This document shows, one piece after another, positions 7,988 through 22,932 of a DNA stretch of 64,000 bases. Source of the DNA: Sedimenticolaceae bacterium (GTDB lineage: Bacteria > Pseudomonadota > Gammaproteobacteria > Chromatiales > Chromatiaceae). Where the stretch lies: contig OY829891.1 of the NCBI GenBank assembly GCA_963691905.1, positions 293,795 through 357,794 of the forward strand, read 5' to 3'. The first letter of the stretch is position 1. Every line of letters starts with the position of its first letter. The position numbers and the translations under genes are program-made. Under the pieces are notes generated by a model. The model made no database searches. It worked only from the letters and a program-made list of their open reading frames with translations, and was not told the origin of the DNA.

Positions 7988-10900
7988 ATGAAATCATGGT
8001 CAAATCATCAGAACGAGATTCGGCTGACGAGTGACGCCAAACCAAGCAAAAGCACCCGCAACGACACCATGGAAAAAGAAGAAAAATCGATCATCCGCAT
8101 CTTCGTCGGCTCACCCGGTGATGTGGAAGAGGAGCGCAAGGCCGCCTTTGAGGTCATCGACCAGCTGAACAACCACCACTGGCGACCCCGCAACATTGCG
8201 GTAAAGGGTTACGGCTGGGACAATACCCACTACCCGAAACTGATCCCCAACTCACCACAGGCCGACATCGAAACCAGCCTGCCGAAGATGGCAGAGTACG
8301 ACATCTGCATCTTCATACTCTGCCATCGTCTGGGTACGCCGTTGGATGAGAGCTTTGCCCCCCTGGATGACGATGGCCGCCAGCCCACCGGTACCGAGTA
8401 CGAATTCTACAGTGCCCGGAATACAGAGACACCACCACAGATACTGCTATATCGGCGTGAAAAAGCGTTCTCTCTGCAACCCGATATGCCTCAAACTGAC
8501 CAAATAGAGGCTTTCGAACAATTCCAACTTGCGAATGCCTTCATCGAAAAAAACACCAAAGAAGGCAAAACCTTCACTGGCGACTACCACAAACACAAAA
8601 CAGACGACGACTTCAAAACACGCCTGGAGAAAGACCTCACTGCCCTGGTCAATCGACTGCTCAAGACACCCGCACAACCGGATAAACCCAAAACTGACCA
8701 ACCGGCGTCCATCCCCAGCAGCTACCTGAATTGGCTCAGACACAAAGCCAGCGATATCACTCTGCTCGGTCTCGACAACAAAGAGGCCCACAACGTCCGC
8801 CTGCCGCAAGTCTACGTCCCGGCAATCACCCCAACGCCCACAGAGGAAGGGGAAGAGAAAAAAGAACGCTGGGAAGTAGATCGAGAAGGCCATGATCTGT
8901 TACTGACGCGACTGAACCAGGACTCCCTCTACCTGCCGGGTGCGCCAGGCAGGGGCAAAACCACCTTCTGCAACTGGGTCTGTTGGGTTGTGGCCAGCAG
9001 TACCATCCCCGCCGACGACCACAAACTGGCCGCTGAATACCAAGAAGAACTACCGCAAGATCTGCTGGGCCGTCTGCCGGTCCTCTGCCGATTACGCGAA
9101 TTCTGGGGACACATGACATGCCGGAAGGACAACGGCGACTGGACCCGCACCCAACTTGAGACAGCCCTCTGCAACTGGCTCGACAAGAAAAAACCGGATG
9201 GTCTGACTTCAGCCCGCTTTCTGGAGCACCTGAAACGGGGTAACTGCCTGCTGATCATCGACGGCTTTGATGAAGTCCCGCCAAGCCGTGAGTACGATGG
9301 CCACATCGAATATCCCCGCGCCGCCCTGCTCTCAGGCCTGAAGAAGGCGCTGCCTCACTGGATCGAAGGCGGCAACCGCATCCTGCTCACCAGCCGCCCC
9401 TACGGTCTGAGTCCGGGTGAGCGTCAGGGACTGGGCCTTGCAGAGAGCGAACTCTCCGCCCTCACTGGCGGCCTGCAACGACTCTTCGTTCAACGCTGGT
9501 TCCATGCAGCAGACAGAGAGAAAGGGACAATAAAGGCCGACGGACTTCTGCAACAACTCGATGCCCGCCCCGACCTAAATGAGTTTCGTACCAACCCAAT
9601 GCTGCTGACCGCCCTCTGCGTGAAGTATGACGAAGGGAGCAGGCTGCCGAAAGATATCCACGATCTCTACAGTGCGGTGATAAACCAGGTACTACACAAC
9701 CGCTATCTTGACCGGGCGCATGAGGTGGCGAAGGTGCGGCGGCGACTGGGGGTCATCGCTTGGGAGATGCACAGCGGCGATCTGGCGGGTAAACAACGCA
9801 GCGTACCCGACGCGGAGATCCACGAAGAGGAGATCGAGGGGGTTTTGATAGACTATGCCCATTCCAAACCCCACGATGAGGGCGGTGAAGATGATGCCTC
9901 AGACAAGCGGGAAGACTTGCTCTCGCGCTCCGGTCTTTTACTGCCGACAGAAAACAATCAGGCGGAGTTCTATCACCTCAGCTTCCAGGATTTCCTCGCT
10001 GCAGAGCGTTTTGTCCGTTCTGGGCAATCGGTGGAGGATCTGGTCGCCTCCCATGCGGGCACATCCCAGTGGCGACAGACCCTGCTGTTTCTTTTCGCCC
10101 GGCTCACCAGCCGGGAGGATCTGGATACCGCCCTGGAGCGTTTCTCAGTACTGGGAGATTTTCTTGACCGGGATTCACTGCGCCAAAATCCACGCCCCGC
10201 CATTCTGTTGGGCGACTGTCTGGAGATCGCCCAGGCACGGGGAGAGATCGGCGAGTGGGGCATGGTCTATCGCCAGGCATGTTATACCGCACTGGAAGTG
10301 GTAAAGAGCCCGGAACATCGTGAAGCACTGTTTCGCGCCCTGGGAGCAGCCGGTCTTGATGATCGTCCAGGTGTGGGGCTGGATGAAAACGACCTGCCCG
10401 ATATCGCCTGGCAGGATATTCCGGCGGGTGAAGTTACCCTGTCCGGCAATGCGGGCAGTTTCCCGGTAGGGACCTTCCGCCTCTCCCGCTACCCCGTCAC
10501 CAACGCCCAGTTCCAGGCCTTTATCGATGATGACAAGGGGTATAAGAACCCTGAGTGGTGGGCAGACCTGGAGGTGGAACCGGGCAAACCTTTGTCCTCA
10601 CAGTGGAAGGAAGACAACCATCCCCGTGAAAGAGTCAGCTGGTATGAGGCAATGGCTTTCTGTGCCTGGCTATCCCACCGGCTGGGTTATCGGATGAGTC
10701 CACCGACAGAGTGGCAGTGGCAGCAGGCCGCCACCAGCGGCAATCCTGGGCAGGACTATCCGTGGGAAAAGGAGTACAAAAGTGGGCGGGCCAATATTGA
10801 TGAGACTTCTGGAGGTGCAGGTTCTCACTATCTGCGCCGAACCACGGCCGTGGGTATCTATCCTCAAGGTAATTCTGCGCAAAAGGTATCGGATCTTGCA

Positions 10901-11221
10901 GGAAACGTCTGGGAGTGGTGTCTGAATGAGCGTGATGAACCAGCAAATACACAGACCAGCGGTACGAAGCGGCGCGTGTTGCGCGGCGGGTCCTGGTTCT
11001 TCAATCTAGACAACGCCCGCGCGTCGATTCGCAACAACAACGAACCGGACAACCGTAACAACAATCTGGGTTTTCGGTTGAGTTGTTCGTCCCACATCGC
11101 CCCTGTTCTTCCTATTGCCGGTACTGCCTGCCGATCACGATTTGCAGGCCGAGGCGAAGAACGGATTGATGGCGCGGGATGGTCCCGTCCGCACTGTAAC
11201 AATACCGTCGGGCATATATAA
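7988..11221 (+). CDS. DUF4062 - NACHT (STAND NTPase) - FGE-sulfatase/C-type-lectin-fold protein; DGR target 1
   Basis: The N-terminus reads IRIFVGSPGDVEEER...TGTEYEFYSA (DUF4062-like). Walker A is GAPGRGKTT and Walker B is LLIIDGFDEVP (NACHT-like). The C-terminus reads RYPVTNAQFQAFI..HPRERVSWYEAMAFCAWL..GNVWEWC..RVLRGGSW...LGFRLSC (FGE/SUMF1-like). The likely true start is the ATG at 8069 (MEKEEKS). The last 48 codons after LSCSS look like read-through of non-coding DNA. Confidence 0.85.
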   Translation: MKSWSNHQNEIRLTSDAKPSKSTRNDTMEKEEKSIIRIFVGSPGDVEEERKAAFEVIDQLNNHHWRPRNIAVKGYGWDNTHYPKLIPNSPQADIETSLPKMAEYDICIFILCHRLGTPLDESFAPLDDDGRQPTGTEYEFYSARNTETPPQILLYRREKAFSLQPDMPQTDQIEAFEQFQLANAFIEKNTKEGKTFTGDYHKHKTDDDFKTRLEKDLTALVNRLLKTPAQPDKPKTDQPASIPSSYLNWLRHKASDITLLGLDNKEAHNVRLPQVYVPAITPTPTEEGEEKKERWEVDREGHDLLLTRLNQDSLYLPGAPGRGKTTFCNWVCWVVASSTIPADDHKLAAEYQEELPQDLLGRLPVLCRLREFWGHMTCRKDNGDWTRTQLETALCNWLDKKKPDGLTSARFLEHLKRGNCLLIIDGFDEVPPSREYDGHIEYPRAALLSGLKKALPHWIEGGNRILLTSRPYGLSPGERQGLGLAESELSALTGGLQRLFVQRWFHAADREKGTIKADGLLQQLDARPDLNEFRTNPMLLTALCVKYDEGSRLPKDIHDLYSAVINQVLHNRYLDRAHEVAKVRRRLGVIAWEMHSGDLAGKQRSVPDAEIHEEEIEGVLIDYAHSKPHDEGGEDDASDKREDLLSRSGLLLPTENNQAEFYHLSFQDFLAAERFVRSGQSVEDLVASHAGTSQWRQTLLFLFARLTSREDLDTALERFSVLGDFLDRDSLRQNPRPAILLGDCLEIAQARGEIGEWGMVYRQACYTALEVVKSPEHREALFRALGAAGLDDRPGVGLDENDLPDIAWQDIPAGEVTLSGNAGSFPVGTFRLSRYPVTNAQFQAFIDDDKGYKNPEWWADLEVEPGKPLSSQWKEDNHPRERVSWYEAMAFCAWLSHRLGYRMSPPTEWQWQQAATSGNPGQDYPWEKEYKSGRANIDETSGGAGSHYLRRTTAVGIYPQGNSAQKVSDLAGNVWEWCLNERDEPANTQTSGTKRRVLRGGSWFFNLDNARASIRNNNEPDNRNNNLGFRLSCSSHIAPVLPIAGTACRSRFAGRGEERIDGAGWSRPHCNNTVGHI
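10973..11093 (+). repeat. DGR repeat copy 1 (AAC-rich; VR of target 1 and/or TR-like)
   Basis: This 121-nt block matches the reverse complement of 12870-12990 at 108/121 positions. It encodes ...SWFFNLDNARASIRNNNEPDNRNNNLGFRLSCSS. Confidence 0.8.
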
Positions 11222-11260
11222 AAAAGGGGCGCTTCCCGGACACTGTTCCCGAAGCGCCCC
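11219..11260 (-). terminator. Rho-independent terminator of avd (U-run only on the minus strand)
   Basis: The stem is GGGGCGCTTC (11226-11235) paired with GAAGCGCCCC (11251-11260). An A6 run at 11220-11225 gives a T-run after the hairpin on the minus strand, just downstream of the avd stop at 11264. Confidence 0.7.
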
Positions 11261-11263
11261 GCC

Positions 11264-11617
11264 CTATCCATGATCCGTTCGGGCCTGCCGCAACCAGCCA
11301 CCTAATAGACGGCCGATCTCCGCCACCATCTCACTCACATGTTGATATTGCCCATGGCTCAGCCATTGCCATCTATGGATGAGTTTCAGATAGTTGCGAA
11401 GTCTTGACAGCGAAGCATCGGCGGATTGCAACGCCACCAATCGCTCACACCCCTGTTGTGCCTGTGCATCTCCCAAAGCCTCGTAAAGATCCAACCCCGA
11501 ATCCATAAGACGTTGTGTTACCGTGTGACGATAGACCCTTGGGAAACGCTCTGACTTTGGCAACAGCCAGTCGAGCAGGTCAAACACACGTACAAATATC
11601 ACCATCTCCTGTGTCAT
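11264..11617 (-). CDS. avd: DGR accessory variability determinant-like four-helix-bundle protein (Avd)
   Basis: 117 aa. The [25 protein letters not shown].. pattern fits the Avd / '23S rRNA IVS' four-helix-bundle family. A strong AGGAGG Shine-Dalgarno sequence lies 8 nt upstream of the ATG. The gene is adjacent to the DGR RT. Confidence 0.8.
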
Positions 11618-11621
11618 TCAG

Positions 11622-12698
11622 ATGTCCTCCTTTAGCACACTATTCAAACAAATCTGTGATTGGGAAAACCTGCTTATGGCCTACCGGAAGGCAGCCAGGG
11701 GCAAGCGCGGTCATCCCAACGTAGCGCAGTTTGATTTCAGACAGGCGGATGAGTTGCTAAGTCTTCGCAGCGAATTGCTTGCTGGAAATTACCGGCCCGG
11801 ACCTTATGTGAACTTCCATATTCACGAGCCCAAGCGGCGCAAAATCAGCGCCGCCCCTTTCCGCGACAGGGTAGTGCATCACGCACTATGTAATCTATTG
11901 GAACCCAGGTTCGAAAGACACTTCATTCCTGATAGTTACGCCAACCGGGTCGATAAGGGAACTCACCGGGCAGTGGATCGCTTGCAGGCATTCTCACAGC
12001 GTTTCCGCTACATACTGCGGGCGGACATCGTCAAACATTTCCCATCCATTGATCACACAGTTCTCAAGGAGATCCTGCATCGCCGAATTGAAGAGGATGA
12101 TGTCATGGTACTGGTTCGTACCATCATCGACAGTGGTGCCGGTGTGTTGGATGACGAATATGAGATGCAGTGGTTTCCGCAAGACGACCTGCTTGCTGCC
12201 TGCCGGCCGCGCGGCCTGCCCATCGGTAATCTGACATCACAGTTCTGGTCCAACTGCTACCTCGACCCTTTTGACCATTTCGTGAAACGTGAACTCGGCT
12301 GCAAAGCCTACCTGCGTTATGTTGATGACTTTGCCCTCTTCAGCAACAGCAAGGCAGAACTCTGGGCCTGGAAACGTGCAATCATCGAACGCCTGCAACG
12401 GTTTCGGCTGGTCATCCATGAATCTGCCGCTCAGGTTTTGCCGGTTGAGTGCGGAATTCCCTGGCTCGGCTTCGTGGTCTATCCGACTCACCGGCGCATC
12501 AAGGCACGTAAAGTACGTACTGCCACACGGCATTTAGCTGAACGGATGCAAGCCTGGAAACAGGGCAGGATCAGCTTCGCAGAACTTGACGCCTGCATTA
12601 ACGGCTGGGTCAACCATGTACGTTACGCTGACACCTGGGGACTACGCCGTTCTGTTTTCAACCGGCTTGCCACAAATGAGCGGGAAACCAAAATGTAG
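11622..12698 (+). CDS. DGR-type reverse transcriptase
   Basis: 358 aa with RT motifs: [34 protein letters not shown] (the DGR hallmark [ILV]GxxxSQ) and [12 protein letters not shown] (YxDD). Confidence 0.9.
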
Positions 12699-12762
12699 GA
12701 GCGGCGCCCTCGCCGCGATTTATCTATCTATGGAGTAATCGCGGCGGGGCGCCGCTCCTACA
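12694..12762. terminator. Long GC-rich palindrome (REP-like) between the convergent RT and target-2 genes
   Basis: TGTAGGAGCGGCGCCCTCGCCGCGATT-loop-AATCGCGGCGGGGCGCCGCTCCTACA forms a ~25-bp stem with one bulge. It overlaps the RT stop codon. It is a plausible bidirectional terminator. Confidence 0.6.
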
Positions 12763-12852
12763 GGTACCTTGCATGAAAATATTCGTCACCGCCGCTATCG
12801 CGGCAGATCAGTGAACAGAAAAGCAGTGATTCAGTGTTCAGAGCCACAGTGG

Positions 12853-15800
12853 TCAGTCTTTCTTGATGGGGGACGAACAACTCAACCGAAAACCCAGATT
12901 GTAGTAACGGGAGTCCGGTACGTTGTAGTAGCGAACCGACGCGCGGGCGTAGTCTTGATCGTAGAGCCAGGACCCGCCGCGCAACACGCGACTTTCCGTG
13001 CCGCTGGTTTGTGTATTGGCTGGATCGCCATACTCGTTCAGACACCATTCCCAGACGTTTCCTGCAAGATCTGACACCCCTTGCCCTGAGTTACCCTGGG
13101 GATAGATACCAACTGCCGTGGTTCGGCGCAGATAGTGAGAACCTGCACCTCTTACAGTCTCATCAATATTGGCCAGCCCTCTTTCGTACTCCGAACCCCA
13201 AGGGTAGTCCTGACCTGGATTGCCGCTCGATGCCGCCTGCTGCCACTGCCACTCAGTCGGCAGACTCACCGTGTATCCCAGCCGGTCGGAGAGCCAGGCG
13301 CAGAAGGCCATCGCCTCGTACCAGGAGACTGTCTCCCGAGGATGATTGGGTTCGCTCCAACTGGGCATTCCAGGTGTATCTGGCTTCTCATCCAGTTTCA
13401 CCCACCATTCGCGGTTTTGATATCCCTTGTCATCATCGATAAAGGTCTGGAACTGGGCGTTGGTAACCGGATAACTGGCCAGGTAAAAGTGTTCGACAGG
13501 GAAAGTACCTGCATCGTCCTCCAGGCTGACTTCATCGGCAGCGGGAATCTCACACCACTCAATATCAGGTAATCCATTTTTATCCAGCCCGACCCCGGGG
13601 CGTGGATCTCCGATGCCACCCAGCATCCTCCCCGCCTCGGTCCGTTCCTCGATTGTCAAAGCGGTGGAATCTTCGATGAGTTCGACAATGAGCCTGCGTA
13701 TCTTTTTACACTGACGGGGAAAGCCGGTGTCGTCCAGGCCAGTCAGCCCCAGTTCCATCAGGCTCAGGCCCGCCAATACCGAGACCTGGTGGCGGATGGT
13801 TTCGACCGCCTCTTCAGCAGTCTCCAGCATATCCTCGATGTAGCCGATGGCGGGGCGGGGTTTCTTGCGCTGCTCCAGAACCGCCAGCAGAAAGGTCTCC
13901 CGCCACCAGACCGGGTCGGTACAGACCTCGCGGCTCAGGGCGTCATCGGTGCGGGAACTGAGCCAGCCCATGGCCAGGTATTCCTGAAACGAGCGATGGG
14001 GAAAGGCATAGTGGTCCCTGCCACGGCTGATAAGGATACCGCTGTGCTGCTCCAGATAGGCCAGCAGGTCGTCCCTGCCCAATGTCGCCAGCAGGGGTTC
14101 AAAGACGTCCAGCAACTGGCTGCGGCTGATATTAGCGACACCGGTACTGTCGCGCTGCTCACGCTGGGTCTTGTGCGCCGACCAGGCAAGTCTCTGCAGG
14201 CATTCACGCAAGACCGGTTCCGGCAGGCTCAGGGGCTGACCATCGCAGTTTCGAAAACAGCGGTTGGCACGCCACTGGTAGAGCAGCAGGTTGACGCTGT
14301 CACGGTAGAGTTCAGCACGATCCTCCGGCAGGCTGCCGCCACTGGCGTGCAGGGTGGCGATGAGAGTCAGCAGCAGGGGACGACGGGCCAGTTCCCGCAG
14401 GTGTTCACGATTTTCGACCCGCTCCACCATATCAGGCACGCGAAGCTTCAAATCCTGTTCGCGCAGGCCGAATCGCTCTCTCGCCGCCCGATACCAGCCG
14501 TGGATGAACTGGCTTCGCTGTCCTTCATCAAATGGGGTGAGGAAGAGCGGGGTGAAACCGGACAGGCGCCAGCCGGGATCAGTGTATGCGTAGGGACGGG
14601 CGGTCAACATGAAACGGGTCGACGCCGGCAGCTCTTCCACCAGCGCACGAATCGCCTGCAACAGGTGAGTACGGCGCTCACCGGCGGCAGGTACCTCGTC
14701 GAGTCCGTCGAGCAGGATCATTCCCCCTGGGTTCTCGTTCAGTCGATGACGCAGGGCGCTCACCACTTGCGGGGCTTTTTTGCCCCTGCCTTGGGCGCTG
14801 CCTTCCAGCAGGTCACGGATATCCGCCTCCAGCGCCTGCCACAGCCACTTGGCACTTCCCACTTTGGCGTTGCCGGGGATCTCAACCTGCCGCAGGACGA
14901 TACGCACAGGAATCCTGCCCTGAAGTAGATCAGGCAGTTCGGCATCCGCCTTATTCGCAGACAACTGCCAGGCGAGCTGGTTGACCAGGGCCGACTTGCC
15001 TGCGCCAGGATCGCCGATCAACACCGCGTGGGATTCACGGGCCAACAGATCGAGAACCGGCACGGGTTCACCACTTTTGCCTTCGGTCATTTTGCGAATG
15101 TGGTCTGGAACCTCTTCGTCCTGCTCCAGCCACTTTTCCGGTGGAGCAACGGCCTTCAGAGGAACAAAGATATCCGGCAGGCGGATGGGGTCGGCTGGCT
15201 GTTCCAGACCCTGACGGGCGTCCAGCACCTCCAGGGGAAGCCGGGCGCAGTCGACGGCCTGGATGCGTAACCACTCTGCCAGGAGTTGGTCGTCCGGCGG
15301 CGGGTCGGGTGGGTCACCGGTGCCGTCGCCCTGCTGGTTCCAGGGCTTTTTCGGATCGTTGAGCCATTGATTGAGATCACGCGCCAGCAGCACGGGGAAG
15401 TCGTCAGTGGTTTCGAAATTTGCGGTGAAGAGTTGGTCTTCGCCTTCCTTGTTCAGGTGCGCTCTGAAAGCATCAACCTCTCGTTTCTGGTTTAGGATTC
15501 CGGCCAGTTCGTCGGTATCCGTGGGTGGTCCACCCTTTTCCCAACCGTTGCGGAAGAACCATTTGATCTCCGGGTAGTCGCCATGCGCCCGACGAATATT
15601 CATGGCGACAGTGAACTCCTCCTCGGTGCCTGAGTTGAAGTCACCAGTCGGTGTGCCAAAACGCTGCCCCAGCAGGCCAATAACCAGTGCAAGGGAAGGT
15701 CTGAATTTGATTAAGGTCTGTTGAGTGATCAGCGCTTGGGGACGACCAACGCCAATATCGGTCTGGTTTTCCCAGTCGATAAGATCGAACTGAAAACCCC

Positions 15801-15930
15801 TGGGATTGGCGGTATCCCGATTGTAGGCCTTGAAAAAATCACGCACCGCCTGGCGCTCTTCGGCCATATCGCCGGGTGAGGCGAGGAACACATGATAGAT
15901 CTTGCGATCAGCGGGTTTCGGCGACGACAT
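12853..15930 (-). CDS. DUF4062 - NACHT (STAND NTPase) - FGE-sulfatase/C-type-lectin-fold protein; DGR target 2
   Basis: 1025 aa. The N-terminus reads KIYHVFLASPGDMAEER...SGTEEEFTVA. Walker A is GDPGAGKS and Walker B is MILLDGLDEVP. The C-terminal FGE-like domain is collinear with target 1 and ends ...SWLYDQDYARASVRYYNVPDSRYYNLGFRLSCSSPIKKD. Confidence 0.85.
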   Translation of the reverse strand: MSSPKPADRKIYHVFLASPGDMAEERQAVRDFFKAYNRDTANPRGFQFDLIDWENQTDIGVGRPQALITQQTLIKFRPSLALVIGLLGQRFGTPTGDFNSGTEEEFTVAMNIRRAHGDYPEIKWFFRNGWEKGGPPTDTDELAGILNQKREVDAFRAHLNKEGEDQLFTANFETTDDFPVLLARDLNQWLNDPKKPWNQQGDGTGDPPDPPPDDQLLAEWLRIQAVDCARLPLEVLDARQGLEQPADPIRLPDIFVPLKAVAPPEKWLEQDEEVPDHIRKMTEGKSGEPVPVLDLLARESHAVLIGDPGAGKSALVNQLAWQLSANKADAELPDLLQGRIPVRIVLRQVEIPGNAKVGSAKWLWQALEADIRDLLEGSAQGRGKKAPQVVSALRHRLNENPGGMILLDGLDEVPAAGERRTHLLQAIRALVEELPASTRFMLTARPYAYTDPGWRLSGFTPLFLTPFDEGQRSQFIHGWYRAARERFGLREQDLKLRVPDMVERVENREHLRELARRPLLLTLIATLHASGGSLPEDRAELYRDSVNLLLYQWRANRCFRNCDGQPLSLPEPVLRECLQRLAWSAHKTQREQRDSTGVANISRSQLLDVFEPLLATLGRDDLLAYLEQHSGILISRGRDHYAFPHRSFQEYLAMGWLSSRTDDALSREVCTDPVWWRETFLLAVLEQRKKPRPAIGYIEDMLETAEEAVETIRHQVSVLAGLSLMELGLTGLDDTGFPRQCKKIRRLIVELIEDSTALTIEERTEAGRMLGGIGDPRPGVGLDKNGLPDIEWCEIPAADEVSLEDDAGTFPVEHFYLASYPVTNAQFQTFIDDDKGYQNREWWVKLDEKPDTPGMPSWSEPNHPRETVSWYEAMAFCAWLSDRLGYTVSLPTEWQWQQAASSGNPGQDYPWGSEYERGLANIDETVRGAGSHYLRRTTAVGIYPQGNSGQGVSDLAGNVWEWCLNEYGDPANTQTSGTESRVLRGGSWLYDQDYARASVRYYNVPDSRYYNLGFRLSCSSPIKKD
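12870..12990 (-). repeat. DGR variable repeat (VR) of target 2
   Basis: This is the 121-nt partner of 10973-11093. TAC/TCC/GAT/GTT/GTA codons occur where copy 1 has AAC/AAT/ATT/GAA. Confidence 0.85.
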
Positions 15931-16141: not shown

Positions 16142-18019
16142 TCAAGGCCCGGCCGCCGCACCGACCAGACCCAGCACACTCTCGCCGGAGAGACCATCGA
16201 GCGCGGTTTGAGTGCCTCTAGCGTAGTTTGGATGCGCATCAATGGCATTTTCAAGATTAGTGGTAATATTCGCCTCGCTCATCGCCAGCGCTGCCGCGAC
16301 ATTCGCTTCTGAAACGGAGGGATCCTGCACGATAATTCGGCTGCATATGTCCCGATAATGCGCAGTATTACCCTTTGCCGCCAAGACCATTGCCCATTGC
16401 AGCAGAGCGCTGGTGGCTGATCTTCTGTAACCGCGAATGGCCGCAGGTTGTTCTGCAGCCGGGAGCGCCAAGATCTCATCCATTATATATCGCATCTGGC
16501 TGGTATAGGCCCGTGCCTCGAGTTCAAGCACACGGCGTTGTGTGATACCTGCACTCGCGGCGTCATCGGCGGCGTGGGTCAATTCATGGATGACCAGTGC
16601 TCGCGAATCAATCGCCGCAACGTCCAGATTGGTCGGCAGATAGAGCGTATCCCCTTTTTCCTGGTCTCTCCTGCCTATCGGTGAGTAGAAGGCACCGGCG
16701 CCATTACCTGATGTCAAACTCCGGAAGGCACGGGGGATCAGGGCATCGATCTTTATCTGACCACTCCTGATCTGTCCTGCGGTAGAGTGACCTGCTGTCC
16801 GGGCGATGACATAGACGATCCCGGCCATTACTTTATCCCCCGAACTACTGTCGGATGCCGCATTCAACATCGCACCCAATACTTCAAGGGAGGGAATGCT
16901 GTGTGTTTCCATATAGGCAATCAATGCAGTCGCCTGTCTCTGGAACTGCGGACCGGCGTGTCGAAGAATCTCTGTGGTTGCCGCCGCATCAGCCTCAGCC
17001 AATAAGACCATTCCACGTTCAAGATCAACACCCAATGTCGTGATGGCTGTCCACAACTGCAGAATGAGAGCATCCGGTATCTGCTCCCGTCCGATATTTC
17101 GCACACGTTCACGGTTGGCCGCAGTGATGGTGTTGATTACGATACTCAGCGTCCCGGTTCCGTGCGCCTGAAGCAATGGGACATTGACCGGATTGAGCAT
17201 CGACGCCATCAAGAGCCGTTCCGCATGGGTAACCGTACCGCGAACCTGCAACGCGTAGATACGCAGTGCATTGAGCTCGTTATCCGTCAGGGCGCCATCA
17301 CCGACAAAACGTTTTATGCGTCTGAAGAAGCCCGCCGTGATACCGCTGCCGACCCGGAACAGATAGTTACCGGTAGGCACGTTTGCCGCATCGAGCTCAA
17401 TCTCCCGCTGGACTATGGAAAACCGTTGTAGGCCTCCAGCGCCACGATTCTGTTGCACCACATGAGTCAACTCATGGGCCAGCAGGTGTTTTCCGGTTTT
17501 CGTCTCGGGATTGTACTTTCCTGAGTTGAAATAGATGTCTTTCCCGTGGGTAAACGCCTGGGCACCGACAGCCCGGTTCAGGCTGGCGGATTCACTGTCT
17601 GTGTGTAGCCGCACATCACTGAAATCGAAACCCAGCGACTGCGACATCTCCCTATGGGTTGGTGTTGGCAGTCTACTGCCGCTTCCCTTGGTGGATTGCA
17701 ATCTGGCAGCCATGCCGACTGGCGCGGAGGGTACAGCTGGCCGGTGACCGGCCCGTCGTTGAATGGCGAAGAAGCCCTGCTGTTGCGGGGATAAAGCGTG
17801 TTCAGAACGCTGGACAACTGCAGTGGCGACGCTGTCGGCTTCCTTCTCATACTGATCGCCGGGCTGTCCGATCGTCAGCTTTGTCTGAAAGAACGCGCCC
17901 TGCTGAGACCTCTGCCCCGATGCCTTGCCGGTATGGGAGAAAAAAGGTTGCTCCTGCCTGTCAATCGCTTGGATTCCACGCCGCCTGCGTGGACGATACG
18001 CTCTAATGTCCCTGTTCAT
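16142..18019 (-). CDS. DUF4157 (zincin-like) domain protein, paralog A
   Basis: 625 aa. The N-terminal layout is typical of DUF4157: FFQTKLTIGQPGDQYEKEAD...FGFDFSDVRLHTD...AFTHGKDIYF...LLAHELTHVVQQ. A second HExxH (VIHELTHAADD) lies in the C-terminal half. Confidence 0.8.
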   Translation of the reverse strand: MNRDIRAYRPRRRRGIQAIDRQEQPFFSHTGKASGQRSQQGAFFQTKLTIGQPGDQYEKEADSVATAVVQRSEHALSPQQQGFFAIQRRAGHRPAVPSAPVGMAARLQSTKGSGSRLPTPTHREMSQSLGFDFSDVRLHTDSESASLNRAVGAQAFTHGKDIYFNSGKYNPETKTGKHLLAHELTHVVQQNRGAGGLQRFSIVQREIELDAANVPTGNYLFRVGSGITAGFFRRIKRFVGDGALTDNELNALRIYALQVRGTVTHAERLLMASMLNPVNVPLLQAHGTGTLSIVINTITAANRERVRNIGREQIPDALILQLWTAITTLGVDLERGMVLLAEADAAATTEILRHAGPQFQRQATALIAYMETHSIPSLEVLGAMLNAASDSSSGDKVMAGIVYVIARTAGHSTAGQIRSGQIKIDALIPRAFRSLTSGNGAGAFYSPIGRRDQEKGDTLYLPTNLDVAAIDSRALVIHELTHAADDAASAGITQRRVLELEARAYTSQMRYIMDEILALPAAEQPAAIRGYRRSATSALLQWAMVLAAKGNTAHYRDICSRIIVQDPSVSEANVAAALAMSEANITTNLENAIDAHPNYARGTQTALDGLSGESVLGLVGAAAGP

Positions 18020-18573: not shown

Positions 18574-20451
18574 TCAAGGCCCAGCCGCATCACCGACCAA
18601 ATCCAGCACACTCTCACCGGAGAGGCCATCGAGCGCCACGAAGGTACCTCTGGTGTAGTTAGGAAGTTCCGCAATGGCGTCTTCGAGTCTTGTGGTGATA
18701 TCCGCAACACTCAACGCCAAAGCAGCCATAACATTCGCTTCCGATACGGTGGGATCCTGTAGCAGGATACGCGTGCAAATCTCCTGATAACGCGCAGTAT
18801 CCCCTTTTGTCGCCGATATGAGTGCCCATTGAACCCATTCGCTGGCGGCCGATAGCCTGTACTCACGGATGACCGCTGGTTGCCCGGCTGCCGGGAGTGC
18901 CAGGATCTCATCCATCGTGTATTGCAACTGGCGGGTACGAGCCCGAGCCTCGAACTCAAGCACCCGCTGGTGAGTGATGCCCCCGGATGCTGCGTCATCG
19001 GCAGCGTGAGTCAGCTCATGGATGACCAGTGACCGCGAGTCGATAGACGCAACGTTCAGACTGGTCGGCAGATAGAGCGTATCTCCCTTTGCCTCATCGG
19101 TCCTGCCTACTGATGAATAGAACGCAGCAGAACCGTCACCTGAGGTGATACGCCGGTAGGCACGGGGTATAAGCGCATCGACCTTTATTTGACCGCTTCT
19201 GATCTGCCCCGCAGTGGCGTGGCCTGCCTTCCTGGCGATGACATAGACGATCCCGGCCATCACCTTATCGCCGGAACTGCTGTCGGAGGCCGCATTCAAC
19301 ATCGCACCCAATACCTCCAGGGCGGGAATAGTGTGCATCTGCATGTAGGCAATCAGTGCAGTCGCCTGTGTTTGGAATTGTGGACCGGCGTGCTGCAGGA
19401 TCTCTCTGGTTGCCGCCGCATCGACCTCTGCCAATAACGCCAGTCCACGTTCAAGATCGACGCCCAATGTGGTAACGGCATCCCATAACTGCAGCATGAG
19501 GGCATCCGGTATCTGTTCGCGTCCTATATCGCGAGCATGCTGACGGTTGGCATCGGTGATCGTGTTGATCGGAATGGAGAGGGCACCCGTCCCATGAGCC
19601 TGAAGCAATGGAACATTGACAGCGTTGAGCATCGCCGCCATCAAGAGCCGCTCAGCGTTGTTGACTGAACCTCTGACCCGTAGTGCATAGATACGCAGTG
19701 CATTGAGTTCATTATCCGTCAGCGCGCCATCACCGACAAAACGTTTTATACGCGTGAAGAAGCCTGCAGTGATACCGCTGCCAACCCGAAACAGATAGTT
19801 ACCGGTAGGCACATTTGCCGCATCGAGCTCAATCTCCCGCTGGATCATTGAAGTCCGTTGCAGGCCTCCAGCGCCACGATTCTGTTGCACCACATGAGTC
19901 AACTCATGGGCCAGCAGGTGTTTTCCGGTTTTCGTCTCGGGATTGTACTTTCCCGAGTTGAAGTAGATGTCTTTCCCGTGGGTAAACGCCTGGGCACCGA
20001 CAGCCCTGTTCAAGTTGACGGATTCACTGTCTGTGTGTAGCCGCACATCACTGAAGTCGAAACCCAGCGACTGCGACATCTCCGTGTGGGTTCGTTTTGG
20101 CAGTCTACTGCCGCTTCCCTTGGAGGATTGCAATCTGGCAGCCATACCGGCGGGAGCAGAAGGTGCGACTGCCCGGTGACTCGCCCGACGTTGAATGGTG
20201 AAGAAACCCTGCTGTTGCTGTGATGAAGCGTGTCCAGAACGCTGAACAACTGCGGTGGCGACGTTGTCGGCTTCCTTCTCATACTGATCGCCGGGCTGTC
20301 CGATCGTCAGCTTTGTCTGAAAGAACGCACCCTGCTGAGACCTCTGCCCCGATGCCTTGCCGGTATGGGAGAAAAACGGTTGCTCCTGCCTGTCAATCGC
20401 TTGGATTCCACGCCGCCTGCGTGGACGATACGCTCTAATGTCCCTGTTCAT
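18574..20451 (-). CDS. DUF4157 (zincin-like) domain protein, paralog B
   Basis: 625 aa and collinear with paralog A. The first 62 residues are identical, and divergence rises toward the C-terminus. Both HELTHVVQQ and HELTHAADD are retained. Confidence 0.8.
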   Translation of the reverse strand: MNRDIRAYRPRRRRGIQAIDRQEQPFFSHTGKASGQRSQQGAFFQTKLTIGQPGDQYEKEADNVATAVVQRSGHASSQQQQGFFTIQRRASHRAVAPSAPAGMAARLQSSKGSGSRLPKRTHTEMSQSLGFDFSDVRLHTDSESVNLNRAVGAQAFTHGKDIYFNSGKYNPETKTGKHLLAHELTHVVQQNRGAGGLQRTSMIQREIELDAANVPTGNYLFRVGSGITAGFFTRIKRFVGDGALTDNELNALRIYALRVRGSVNNAERLLMAAMLNAVNVPLLQAHGTGALSIPINTITDANRQHARDIGREQIPDALMLQLWDAVTTLGVDLERGLALLAEVDAAATREILQHAGPQFQTQATALIAYMQMHTIPALEVLGAMLNAASDSSSGDKVMAGIVYVIARKAGHATAGQIRSGQIKVDALIPRAYRRITSGDGSAAFYSSVGRTDEAKGDTLYLPTSLNVASIDSRSLVIHELTHAADDAASGGITHQRVLEFEARARTRQLQYTMDEILALPAAGQPAVIREYRLSAASEWVQWALISATKGDTARYQEICTRILLQDPTVSEANVMAALALSVADITTRLEDAIAELPNYTRGTFVALDGLSGESVLDLVGDAAGP

Positions 20452-20608: not shown

Positions 20609-21592
20609 TCACACATTCTCAAGCAGTTTGGTGACTTGTTCCTCAAGCTCTTCCGGGCTTTTATGCAACCGTTTGGAATAGAGCCAGTTCACATGGGTAC
20701 CGACATTGAGCAGACCGGTTTGAGCCTTGGCACGGTCACGGGCACGCACTGGTAAATTTTGACTCAAGGATTCGCGCCACTGTATAAGCCTTCCGCGTTT
20801 GCGTGTCTTTTCACCATCCAGCACACAAAACAGCTGCCGTTGTGTCACGGCAAGCCAAGTACGTTGTTTAATGGTGCGGAACAGCAGCACTCCATCGACG
20901 ACGGATTCTCCAGTCTCGCAGAATCCGGACTCGTCTATCAGTTTACGTACACCGTTCCAGGTATAGAATTCGTTGCCAGAGGCATTCCTCTCCTTAAACG
21001 GCTCTGTATAGATGGGTTGTGTGGAAATGGAGGCAGCAATGATCTCCTCGACAATTTCTGCCTCTTCCTCCACCAACTCCTGACCACTCCGTTCGCTCTC
21101 CAGTTGTTCATCGATGCGCAGGGAAAATTCAACAAGTTTTTGCTCCCATTCATGCTTTGGCAGTTCCGACATTGCCTGCCCCGCATCAAATATCTGAATC
21201 TCCTGCAACCAAGCGGTTTCGCGCCACAGACAGGGGCGGATGATGAGTGGAAAAATAGCGAGTTCGCCACTGTTGGAACGGTCGATCAATAATGGCAGTT
21301 CCTGTTCGAGGATAAACTCAGAAGCCAAAAAGTCGGTCGAAACCAACAACACAGCCACCCTCGCCTGCCGGATGGCATCCTCTATCTCAGGCTTCCAGTT
21401 GCTGCCGAGATCGATCTGTTTGTCCGACCAGGCGCGATAGTGAAATCTGGCATTCTGATACAGGTTCCCACTCTTCAGATCCAGCGATTTCAAACGGGTA
21501 AACTTGAGAGAGTCCAGAAAGGCGATAAGCCGCTCATGCCAGTCATCATCGAGATGACTATAGGAGACGAATATATTTATTTCCTTACTCAT
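20609..21592 (-). CDS. TIR domain protein with an uncharacterised C-terminal domain
   Basis: 327 aa. The N-terminus reads INIFVSYSHLDDDWHERL...IEDAIRQARVAVLLVSTDFLASEFILEQEL (TIR_2-like). I could not assign the C-terminal ~130 aa. Confidence 0.8.
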   Translation of the reverse strand: MSKEINIFVSYSHLDDDWHERLIAFLDSLKFTRLKSLDLKSGNLYQNARFHYRAWSDKQIDLGSNWKPEIEDAIRQARVAVLLVSTDFLASEFILEQELPLLIDRSNSGELAIFPLIIRPCLWRETAWLQEIQIFDAGQAMSELPKHEWEQKLVEFSLRIDEQLESERSGQELVEEEAEIVEEIIAASISTQPIYTEPFKERNASGNEFYTWNGVRKLIDESGFCETGESVVDGVLLFRTIKQRTWLAVTQRQLFCVLDGEKTRKRGRLIQWRESLSQNLPVRARDRAKAQTGLLNVGTHVNWLYSKRLHKSPEELEEQVTKLLENV

Positions 21593-21804: not shown

Positions 21805-22932
21805 CTACCAAAGCATAACAGCCGTTTCACCTGCCGCATTGGCCCAGTAAAGACGAACGCGGAGAATATAGGTTGTGCCTTTCATCAGTCGATGCTCGAT
21901 TTTGGCGTTGTAGTCAGAACCGCTGTCATCATCGGCTTGAAGATAGATGGGATCATCGGTCCCGTCATCCTCAAAAAGCACCATCAACGTATCGGCTTCT
22001 CCAAAAGACTGCATGGTGTATTTACGGGTTGTTTTTGGCTTGATAACCAGATTCACCTGCCCACCCGCTTCAATCTGAATGACTTCAGACTGAAATGGCG
22101 TCAGATCAACATAATCTTTTTTTCTCAGCGCCGGATAGAAATGCTGTACCCAGGCTTTGTCTTTGGAAGACAGGCCGGCAGCCGGATGAATACCCACAGA
22201 ATCATAGGGAGACGGCCCTTCAATCAGGGCAGCACGGAATTCGTAATGCATGATGGAGTTGCTGTCCCAACCCGAACCTTCCACATCACTTTCAGAAACC
22301 GCGTCCAGAATATTGCGGTCGATTTTTCTGCGACTCCAGTTATTCGGTGGCCCGCTAAAATAGTCGTAGACCCCCTGCCTGTTCCACTGAATACCCGAAA
22401 ACGGGTTCTGATGTTCATGTTTGCCACCGAGGGAATGGCCAATCTCATGCAGCGCCGTATCCTTGCCGTGGGATGTCGTCAACGACCAGCCAAAGTTCAT
22501 CGTCCGCCGGTTTTTTGAAACATTGCCCATCGGGTAGGTGCCGATATATGACCAGGAACCTTCGTCCTGATCAAAGCCGATCCTGATTTCAGCTTCATCG
22601 AGATTTCTTACCTCAACAAATTCAAGACCTATACCCAGATCTTTCCACTCCTTAAAGGCTTTTCTCACCGCACGCTTGTCAGCGGCACTGCCTGTCCATT
22701 TTTCCGGCGAATCATGTTTCGCGTGTTCGAAAAAACAGTAGTGGATAACCGTACCGTTTACCCAGATGTTATCCATGTCCAGGATAAATGCAGCCCGTCC
22801 CGGATCGACATCCTGCGGCACTTGGCGCAGTGCCATTTCCGGCATATCACAAAATTTACGACCCGCTTTTTCCGCTTTGGAAGCACTCACCTTCTTGGTC
22901 CTTCTTACGCGTGTTTTTTTCTTGATTACCAT
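21805..22932 (-). CDS. Astacin-like (metzincin, M12-type) zinc metallopeptidase with PPC-like C-terminal domain
   Basis: 375 aa with HEIGHSLGGKHEH (HExxHxxGxxHE) and an SIMHY Met-turn. The C-terminal ~100 aa resembles a pre-peptidase C-terminal domain. The N-terminus is basic (KKKTRVRRTKK) with no obvious signal peptide. Confidence 0.7.
   Translation of the reverse strand: MVIKKKTRVRRTKKVSASKAEKAGRKFCDMPEMALRQVPQDVDPGRAAFILDMDNIWVNGTVIHYCFFEHAKHDSPEKWTGSAADKRAVRKAFKEWKDLGIGLEFVEVRNLDEAEIRIGFDQDEGSWSYIGTYPMGNVSKNRRTMNFGWSLTTSHGKDTALHEIGHSLGGKHEHQNPFSGIQWNRQGVYDYFSGPPNNWSRRKIDRNILDAVSESDVEGSGWDSNSIMHYEFRAALIEGPSPYDSVGIHPAAGLSSKDKAWVQHFYPALRKKDYVDLTPFQSEVIQIEAGGQVNLVIKPKTTRKYTMQSFGEADTLMVLFEDDGTDDPIYLQADDDSGSDYNAKIEHRLMKGTTYILRVRLYWANAAGETAVMLW

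Follow-up and report, generated by a model that had tools for sequence, protein, structure and literature searches.

How did the template of a hypermutating retroelement come to lie in frame at the end of one of its own target genes? The question is raised by a 64,000-nt stretch of the genome of a Sedimenticolaceae bacterium (contig OY829891.1, positions 293,795 to 357,794; hereafter the window, in whose own numbering coordinates are given unless a related locus is named), which carries two near-identical 121-nt repeats in opposite orientations. A preliminary description of the sequence had attributed the differences between the copies to adenine-specific mutagenesis by a diversity-generating retroelement (DGR), and had regarded both as variable repeats (VRs) of a template repeat (TR) located elsewhere. 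Here we report that the locus is a chromosomal DGR made up of a reverse transcriptase (RT) gene, a bAvd gene and two paralogous NACHT plus FGE-sulfatase targets, T1 and T2. The copy at the end of T2 (copy 2) is an ordinary variable repeat (VR2), while that at the end of T1 (copy 1), judged by comparison with related loci, is a hybrid between the former variable repeat of T1 (VR1) and the TR, and the sole template-like sequence in the window. VR1 and the TR were probably joined by a deletion of ~306 bp in the bacterium itself, which would have frozen one target and altered the template in a single step.

Results

Two repeat copies enclose the genes of a DGR

Alignment of copy 1 (10973-11093, plus strand) with the reverse complement of copy 2 (12870-12990, minus strand) reproduced the reported identity of 108/121 positions, and the 13 mismatches were exactly those listed before, at offsets 24, 28, 30, 34, 39, 54, 60, 63, 70, 78, 79, 84 and 87 of the block. 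Their classes were recovered as well: copy 1 has A at 10 of the 13 positions, copy 2 has A opposite a T of copy 1 at two, and the last one is T versus C. The block, to which the sequence CTGGGTTTTCGGTTGAGTTGTTCGTCCCACATCG belongs, starts with 24 nt that are devoid of A and the same in both copies, as described, and ends in an identical stretch with a single A that measures 28 nt, close to the ~30 nt of the first estimate. A 14th difference (A versus C) at offset 121, just outside the block, is diagnostic of TR versus VR type. The coding sequence upstream of the repeats, said to be roughly three-quarters identical between the two genes, proved 77-82% identical over 60-300 nt, and the preceding 100 codons differ by 22 synonymous and 19 non-synonymous changes. 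Each of the flank motifs of the repeat occurs twice in the window, against zero occurrences expected from shuffled sequences; searches of the 64 kb with both flank motifs (up to three mismatches), with blastn at word size 7 and with an adenine-masked template uncovered neither a third copy nor a separate TR.

The interval between the copies encodes the machinery of a DGR. The RT gene (358 aa, 11622..12698, plus strand) specifies IGNLTSQ and YVDD motifs, the former matching the [I/L]GxxxSQ hallmark of DGR RTs. Its top match among solved structures is the chain named 'Reverse transcriptase' of entries 8ub7-8ube (8ub7_A, E = 4e-54), which also contain an Avd chain and whose IGSLTSQ aligns with the IGNLTSQ of the window protein; group II intron RTs reached at best E = 3e-19, a match ~35 orders of magnitude weaker. 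The accessory gene avd (117 aa, 11264..11617, minus strand) was recognized by the Pfam model bAvd with 65.4 bits (cut-off 40), and its product matched NCBIfam DivGenRetAVD with 75.9 bits, slightly below the cut-off of 80, and the PDB entries 4dwl (Bbp7) and 8ub7_B (Avd). Copy 1 lies at the 3' end of T1 (1077 aa, 7988..11221, plus strand), whose product combines a DUF4062-like N-terminus with Pfam matches to NACHT (1e-7) and FGE-sulfatase (8.5e-40), and copy 2 lies at the 3' end of T2 (1025 aa, 12853..15930, minus strand), with FGE-sulfatase (1.6e-42), NACHT (2e-9) and DUF4062 (2e-4) matches. In both proteins the FGE-sulfatase domain is C-terminal, and it is from these domain matches that a C-type-lectin fold can be proposed for them. 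The two genes end differently, as the T2 stop codon is found 14 nt past VR2 and the T1 frame extends for 128 nt past copy 1.

VR1 and the template are separate in related loci

The RTs nearest to that of the window, 92% and 84% identical, come from metagenome-assembled genomes (MAGs) of the gammaproteobacterial endosymbiont of the tubeworm Lamellibrachia anaximandri and from a Sedimenticola MAG. Four loci are syntenic with the window, namely L001 and L004 (L. anaximandri symbiont MAGs), L002 (the Sedimenticola MAG) and L018 (the Escarpia spicata symbiont). Identity of the window amounts to ~94-95% with the L. barhami symbiont and 88-94% with that of L. anaximandri. In L001, L004 and L002, T1 encodes 1013-1015 aa and carries VR1 at its end; T1 of L018 is fragmented. 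VR1 is followed by CCC-C-CATCATGAA..TGA and then by a hairpin, CCGCCGC-GATA-GCGGCGG. A stand-alone TR, located 295-308 bp 3' of the VR1 start in all four loci, reads ATC AAC AAT CAA GAC AAC ... AAC AAC AAT, and is followed by CCC-A-CATCGCCCCTGTTCTTCC..., a conserved spacer and then avd on the minus strand; L001, L004 and L002 go on with the RT gene (plus strand) and with T2 and its VR2 (minus strand), whereas L018 is without avd, RT and T2. The template that had been deduced earlier from the repeat pair (AAC AAC AAT CAA ...) agrees with these TRs in all but its first codon, which is ATC and not AAC.

The same layout, VR1(+)-TR(+)-avd(-)-RT(+)-VR2(-), recurs in dozens of environmental contigs (L019-L098) with RTs 62-74% identical, where VR1 lies 234-408 bp upstream of the TR; about ten of these metagenome loci have enough upstream sequence and show TR and VR2 with VR1 undetected. 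Separate VR1 and TR are thus found in the four nearest TR-carrying relatives and in ~30 more distant loci, which identifies the fused state of the window as derived.

Copy 1 joins the start of VR1 to the remainder of the TR

Comparison with these loci resolved copy 1 into two parts. The 5' part (10973..11007), of VR1 origin, comprises the A-free 24-nt block and TTC TTC AAT CT, where the TRs of relatives read ATC AAC AAT CAA. The 3' part (11008..11093), of TR origin, has every adenine (22/22) of the variable stretch past offset 34 unmutated, with intact AAC, AAT and GAA codons. Indeed, the A-to-T changes of copy 1 with respect to the TRs of relatives, at offsets 24, 27, 28 and 34, all fall among the first six of the 28 template adenines (P = 0.0007), and the 3' part equals the TRs of L001, L004 and L018 apart from C at offset 47 and T at offset 56, both at non-A positions. 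The flanks are divided likewise. The 300 nt upstream of copy 1 are 88% identical, and orthologous, to T1 of L001, and the sequence 3' of it is 97% identical to that following the stand-alone TR of L001 (over 170 nt) and L018 (over 130 nt), compared with 88-91% in the neighbouring genes. This downstream segment (11094..11263) consists of a TR-type junction, CCC-A-CATCG, which resembles the TR version (IMH*) of the initiation of mutagenic homing (IMH) sequence, and of the conserved spacer of the DGR RNA. The junction base is A in every TR and in copy 1 (TCGTCCC-A-CATCG) and C in every VR (TCGTCCC-C-CATC), VR2 included.

A four-way alignment with relatives (alignment A1) further revealed that the interval from VR1 to TR is missing from the window, and in blastn comparisons window positions 10970-11098 matched both VR1 and TR of L001, the pattern left behind when the interval between two direct repeats is deleted. 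The T1 orthologues, 1010-1026 aa in length, cover 94% of T1, and its 42-aa tail, which by its sequence is read-through into the spacer, lies outside the part matched by any of the 43 T1 homologues found; owing to one extra base in its spacer, L001 does not share the frame of this tail. The fused 1077-aa T1 is on record from one contig alone, and exact look-ups of this protein and of the window RT yielded no independent assembly. A free-standing non-coding TR, separate from every target, is absent from the window, where the template-like copy forms the in-frame 3' end of T1. The lack of such a TR is a derived rearrangement or an artefact, and the locus is still a member of the DGR family.

VR2 bears adenine-restricted changes and bases that the hybrid could not have supplied

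Comparison of VR2 with the template reconstructed from relatives yielded 12 substitutions, all of them at template adenines (12/12; P = 4e-9 for random placement); measured against the hybrid as it stands, 10/13 differences are at A, a proportion below the 80% cut-off for adenine specificity that we applied to related loci. The VRs of relatives differ from their TRs by 14-21 changes at A sites each and by 0-2 at other bases, and genuine VRs of the lineage have 12-21 of 28-29 adenines changed (43-75%). Across seven VRs from five genomes, 28 of the 29 template-A positions are variable versus 8 of the 92 non-A positions, several of these eight being mirrored in the cognate TR, so that the even spread of substitutions over non-A positions that had been named as the outcome speaking against a DGR was not seen. 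Similarly, L001 and L004 are 98.8% identical over 13 kb and have identical TRs, and over ~2.7 kb (L001 8550-11314) they differ at 16 positions in VR1, 17 in VR2 and four elsewhere. Together with the RT and Avd genes between the copies, the near-exclusive placement of TR/VR differences at template adenines in relatives bears out the adenine-specific DGR mutagenesis proposed at the outset.

VR2 also retains a record of its template. The lineage-specific non-A bases C47 and T56 are common to VR2 and to the TR part of copy 1, which indicates that VR2 was written from the TR of its own lineage and hence that the element has been active in the past. At offsets 24, 28 and 34, VR2 reads C, A and A, and the hybrid has T at all three. 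Since adenine-specific mutagenesis cannot yield these bases from T, the fusion has not been followed by full-length homing, which means that it either is recent or has crippled the element. Two other origins for the four changes in copy 1 were considered and rejected. Self-homing of the element into its own TR leaves the fusion of T1 unexplained, and because homing starts at the 3' end it would be expected to scatter changes along the repeat or bias them towards that end, whereas they are confined to the 5' end. On the other hand, a pristine TR with 5' T's native to the lineage could not have been copied into the C, A and A that VR2 holds at three of those positions.

Target, leader and spacer elements

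Downstream of VR2, a GC-rich inverted repeat with a GATA loop (CTGCCGC-GATA-GCGGCGG, 12789-12806, minus strand; one stem T is opposite G) forms a putative target-recognition hairpin. Its counterpart CCGCCGC-GATA-GCGGCGG follows every VR1 and VR2 in L001, L002 and L004; neither the TR nor copy 1 is followed by it. In the Bordetella phage, a GC stem of 7-10 bp with a GRNA loop marks the DGR target (PMC3240598), which is defined by the IMH together with this hairpin or cruciform (PMC3240598; PMC5758913). By analogy, the IMH/IMH* pair and the hairpin would act here as they do in Bordetella.

On the template side, a sigma-70-like site (TTGATT-18-CATAAT) is located 44 nt upstream of the TR in L001, and the ~60 nt preceding 47 related stand-alone TRs, of genomic and metagenomic origin, contain a -10-like CATAMT motif and two hairpins, the first (GCYGG...CCRGY) with CG/UA/AU covariation and the second reading GGGGYNNCCYG. 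MAFFT/RNAalifold analysis of this leader recovered a partial structure only, with variable loop lengths. In the window, T1 coding sequence stands in place of the CATAMT motif and of both leader hairpins. For the spacer, RNAalifold predicts conserved stems with compensatory changes, and at its 3' end a GC hairpin (about 11226-11260) reads as an avd terminator on the minus strand. The same program predicts that the A-free middle of the TR, CGCCCGCGCGTCGATTCG (11014-11031), pairs over a long range with the spacer segment GGATTGATGGCGCGGG... (11161-11181), corresponding to columns 42-59 and 247-267 of alignment A2, where the spacer segment shows almost no variation among the four closest of five loci. 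This predicted TR-spacer duplex may be part of a structured DGR RNA.

The genes avd (minus strand) and RT (plus strand) are divergent, with start codons 4 nt apart in the window (11615-11624), and this arrangement is kept in relatives with 4-5 nt between the starts (L001 9993-10003, L002 4180-4189). The promoter of each gene must therefore be located within the coding sequence of the other. A sigma-70-like candidate promoter for RT does lie inside avd (11366-11394, plus strand) and is conserved in L001 (9744-9772); judging by this site, the RT gene may have retained its own promoter.

Fates of the locus among symbionts, and its surroundings

The locus is found in several states across the lineage. 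It is intact in the L. anaximandri symbionts and in Sedimenticola, and has its TR fused to T1 in the window. In the E. spicata symbiont (L018), an orphan TR and the fragmented T1 persist, and a Y1-transposase gene occupies the place of avd, RT and T2. In three further assemblies (L013, L014/L015 and L016), T1 alone is left, beside a Y1-transposase gene. This gene encodes a 241-aa Y1_Tnp protein (IS200/IS605 or repetitive extragenic palindrome (REP)-associated tyrosine transposase) and maps to L013 11249-11974, L014 11073-11798, L015 9518-10243, L016 3384-4109 and L018 8313-9038. In the L. barhami symbiont (L099), T1 is cut to 851 aa and the DGR is absent. Evidently, the DGR has been lost repeatedly among host-restricted symbionts, and the fusion in the window is in line with this trend.

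As a separate observation, the VR1 of RT-less genomes (L013 10896-11016, L014 10917-11037, L015 9362-9482) departs from the clade TR at many non-adenine positions, for example with GCG CAC GCA ACC in place of GCC CGT GCG TCG, which reflects either another template or drift after the loss of RT.

Between the convergent RT and T2 genes, a near-perfect long inverted repeat (about 12697-12762, GGAGCGGCGCC...GGCGCCGCTCC) probably represents a bidirectional terminator or else a REP-like element. A search of 10500-13300 against Rfam detected no curated family for the template, the leader or the spacer, and returned just sub-threshold microRNA-like matches to this inverted repeat; these resemblances to plant and insect microRNA precursors were dismissed as chance matches to a hairpin. 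Downstream of T2, two tandem 625-aa paralogues (16142-18019 and 18574-20451, minus strand), assigned to eCIS_core/PF13699 through synteny with L001 and L013, are followed by genes for a 327-aa TIR_2 protein (20609-21592, minus strand) and an astacin-like peptidase (21805-22932, minus strand). This eCIS_core/TIR_2/peptidase neighbourhood may be a conflict or defence region tied to the NACHT sensors.

Discussion

The explanation that we favour for this locus, with a probability of roughly two in three, is a DGR whose TR became fused to T1 through a biological deletion of the ~306 bp from VR1 to TR. The system of the relatives would start from a short RNA that has a promoter of its own and comprises the two-hairpin leader, the 121-nt TR and the ~170-nt structured spacer; RT and Avd would copy this RNA into cDNA with random bases opposite adenines, and the cDNA would replace the repeats that end T1 (VR1) and T2 (VR2), both marked as targets by the VR-type 3' junction and the GC hairpin with its GATA loop. 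In the window, recombination or replication slippage between VR1 and TR, direct repeats ~306 bp apart, would have deleted the interval and generated copy 1, with its first ~35 nt from VR1 and the remainder, as well as everything downstream, from the TR. Such a deletion would have removed the T1 stop codon, the VR-type junction and the hairpin, leaving T1 frozen and untargetable, with an Asn-rich 'germline' tip and the 42-aa tail. It would also have taken the promoter-like site and the leader hairpins of the template, which could then be transcribed solely within the T1 mRNA, as its 3' end, and would now carry T at four former adenines, so template function would be impaired or at least altered. 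VR2, with junction and hairpin kept, would still be a well-formed target.

Several observations weigh against this explanation. T1, avd, RT and T2 are all intact reading frames, and the sequence holds no proof of lost function. Recombination inside the mismatch-rich interior of the repeats is less expected than in their identical ends, and a study based on an E. coli reconstitution reported rare TR-VR recombination (PMC12875486). The main rival is an assembly artefact, in which the ancestral intact layout is preserved in the cell and the assembler jumped from VR1 to TR through shared k-mers, losing about 306 bp. VR1 and TR are ~88%-identical direct repeats with identical ends of 24 nt and 28 nt, and VRs are heterogeneous in populations, which makes for weaker paths in assembly graphs. 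The fused T1 is known from a single contig, and nothing in VR2 points to the hybrid as its template. Such artefacts do occur at these loci. When 98 related loci, 53 of them with TR/VR pairs, were screened for ORF-to-TR fusions (ORF, open reading frame), L076 alone qualified, a 2.9-kb short-read metagenome contig (segments 1-1367 and 2703-2870) in which an FGE-domain ORF runs in frame into an unmutated TR with a TR-type 3' end. However, we rejected it as a second natural fusion, since the 47 nt upstream of its TR are the reverse complement of the other end of the contig, and these inverted end copies identify it as probably an assembly-graph chimera. Three features set the window apart from such a case. 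The join is internal to the repeat, with four VR-type bases followed by TR sequence, and would call for a long k-mer common to VR1 and TR after offset 34, which is unlikely because VRs of the lineage change 12-21 of 28 adenines. Both paralogous targets, as well as the two tandem 625-aa paralogues, are resolved in the contig, which measures 405,759 bp. Lastly, the sequence upstream of copy 1 is the true T1 orthologue and not a copy of T2, unlike in L076. An assembly artefact thus appears possible, although the less probable account.

Beside the biological deletion with impaired function, the fusion might be real and the element still working, the 3' end of the T1 mRNA doubling as the template RNA that diversifies T2; we regard this as rather unlikely. 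Far less probable is the view of the preliminary description that both copies are VRs of a separate template (AAC AAC AAT CAA ...) lying beyond the 64-kb window. It accounts for all 13 mismatches, which are compatible with a template A, and multi-target DGRs are common (about 15% of DGRs; PMC5758913). It is at odds with the features of copy 1, which has a TR-type junction base and the TR-specific spacer, is without VR hairpin and stop codon, and occupies the TR position of four close and >40 distant relatives, just upstream of (avd)-RT; in addition, even at the lowest VR rate the chance of leaving 22/22 adenines after offset 34 unmutated is about 0.57^22 = 4e-6. Least credible of all are ordinary gene conversion or divergence of the T1 and T2 paralogues, and a gene-embedded template ancestral to the lineage. 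Some recombination between paralogues is plausible given their 77-82% identity just upstream of the repeat, but it would leave unexplained the adenine-specific mismatches, the RT and Avd genes between the copies and the restriction of variation to VRs and adenines in relatives, while an ancestral embedded template is contradicted by the separate VR1 and TR of the four nearest TR-carrying relatives and ~30 distant loci.

The window element shares much with the prototype DGR of Bordetella phage BPP-1 (mtd-avd-TR-brt): a homologous RT (8ub7_A) and an Avd four-helix-bundle partner, A-specific differences between TR and VR, a C-type-lectin-fold target that carries the VR at its 3' end, IMH* versus IMH at the 3' ends of TR and VR, and, downstream of the VR, a GC hairpin whose tetraloop is of the GRNA type. 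It differs in being chromosomal and not phage-borne, in having avd on the opposite strand between TR and RT, in serving two NACHT targets instead of one tail-fibre gene, and in that its TR is the in-frame 3' end of a target. DGRs of clade 5D, whose targets are putative antigen sensors, commonly have two of them, each with a single C-type lectin (CLec) domain and a central STAND NTPase, nSTAND1 or NACHT (Dore et al. 2024; PMC10907252). T1 and T2 share the NACHT plus CLec architecture, with defence-like genes (TIR_2, eCIS_core, astacin-like peptidase) adjoining; by this likeness of target architecture the element is a candidate member of the clade. Unlike the clade 5D hosts, that of the window belongs to a seep-tubeworm endosymbiont lineage and is not a multicellular or aggregate-forming bacterium, and the paper has no VR::TR fusion. 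The core gene order is that of architecture B3, TR-(avd)-RT, which was found mostly in candidate-phyla-radiation genomes and hardly occurs in the core set (Wu et al. 2018; PMC5758913), whereas here both Gammaproteobacteria and about 50 related metagenome loci have it; the merging of the window TR with a target is a further difference. Collectively, the DGR and its NACHT plus lectin-fold sensor targets are of a known type and the VR1::TR rearrangement is unusual. No description of a natural VR::TR deletion hybrid was found in the literature searched, which covered few papers from subscription journals and is weak evidence of novelty; the one related statement met there concerns the rarity of TR-VR recombination in the E. 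coli reconstitution (PMC12875486).

These findings advise some caution in DGR annotation, as finding software should allow for a TR hidden within an annotated target ORF, and L076 illustrates the risk of calling DGRs on short-read contigs. If the fusion were real and working, the template would be protein-coding and would do without the promoter and leader hairpins conserved in the clade, implying that the leader is dispensable, and that DGR templates can arise from, or merge with, target genes via VR-TR recombination. If the deletion is real, it represents a natural instance of VR-TR recombination in which one target is frozen, the template edited and its promoter-like site and leader stripped all at once, and would offer a simple single-step way to switch off or rewire a DGR. 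The tubeworm-symbiont lineage thereby offers a natural series for the question of when a host-restricted symbiont keeps or drops a hypermutation system.

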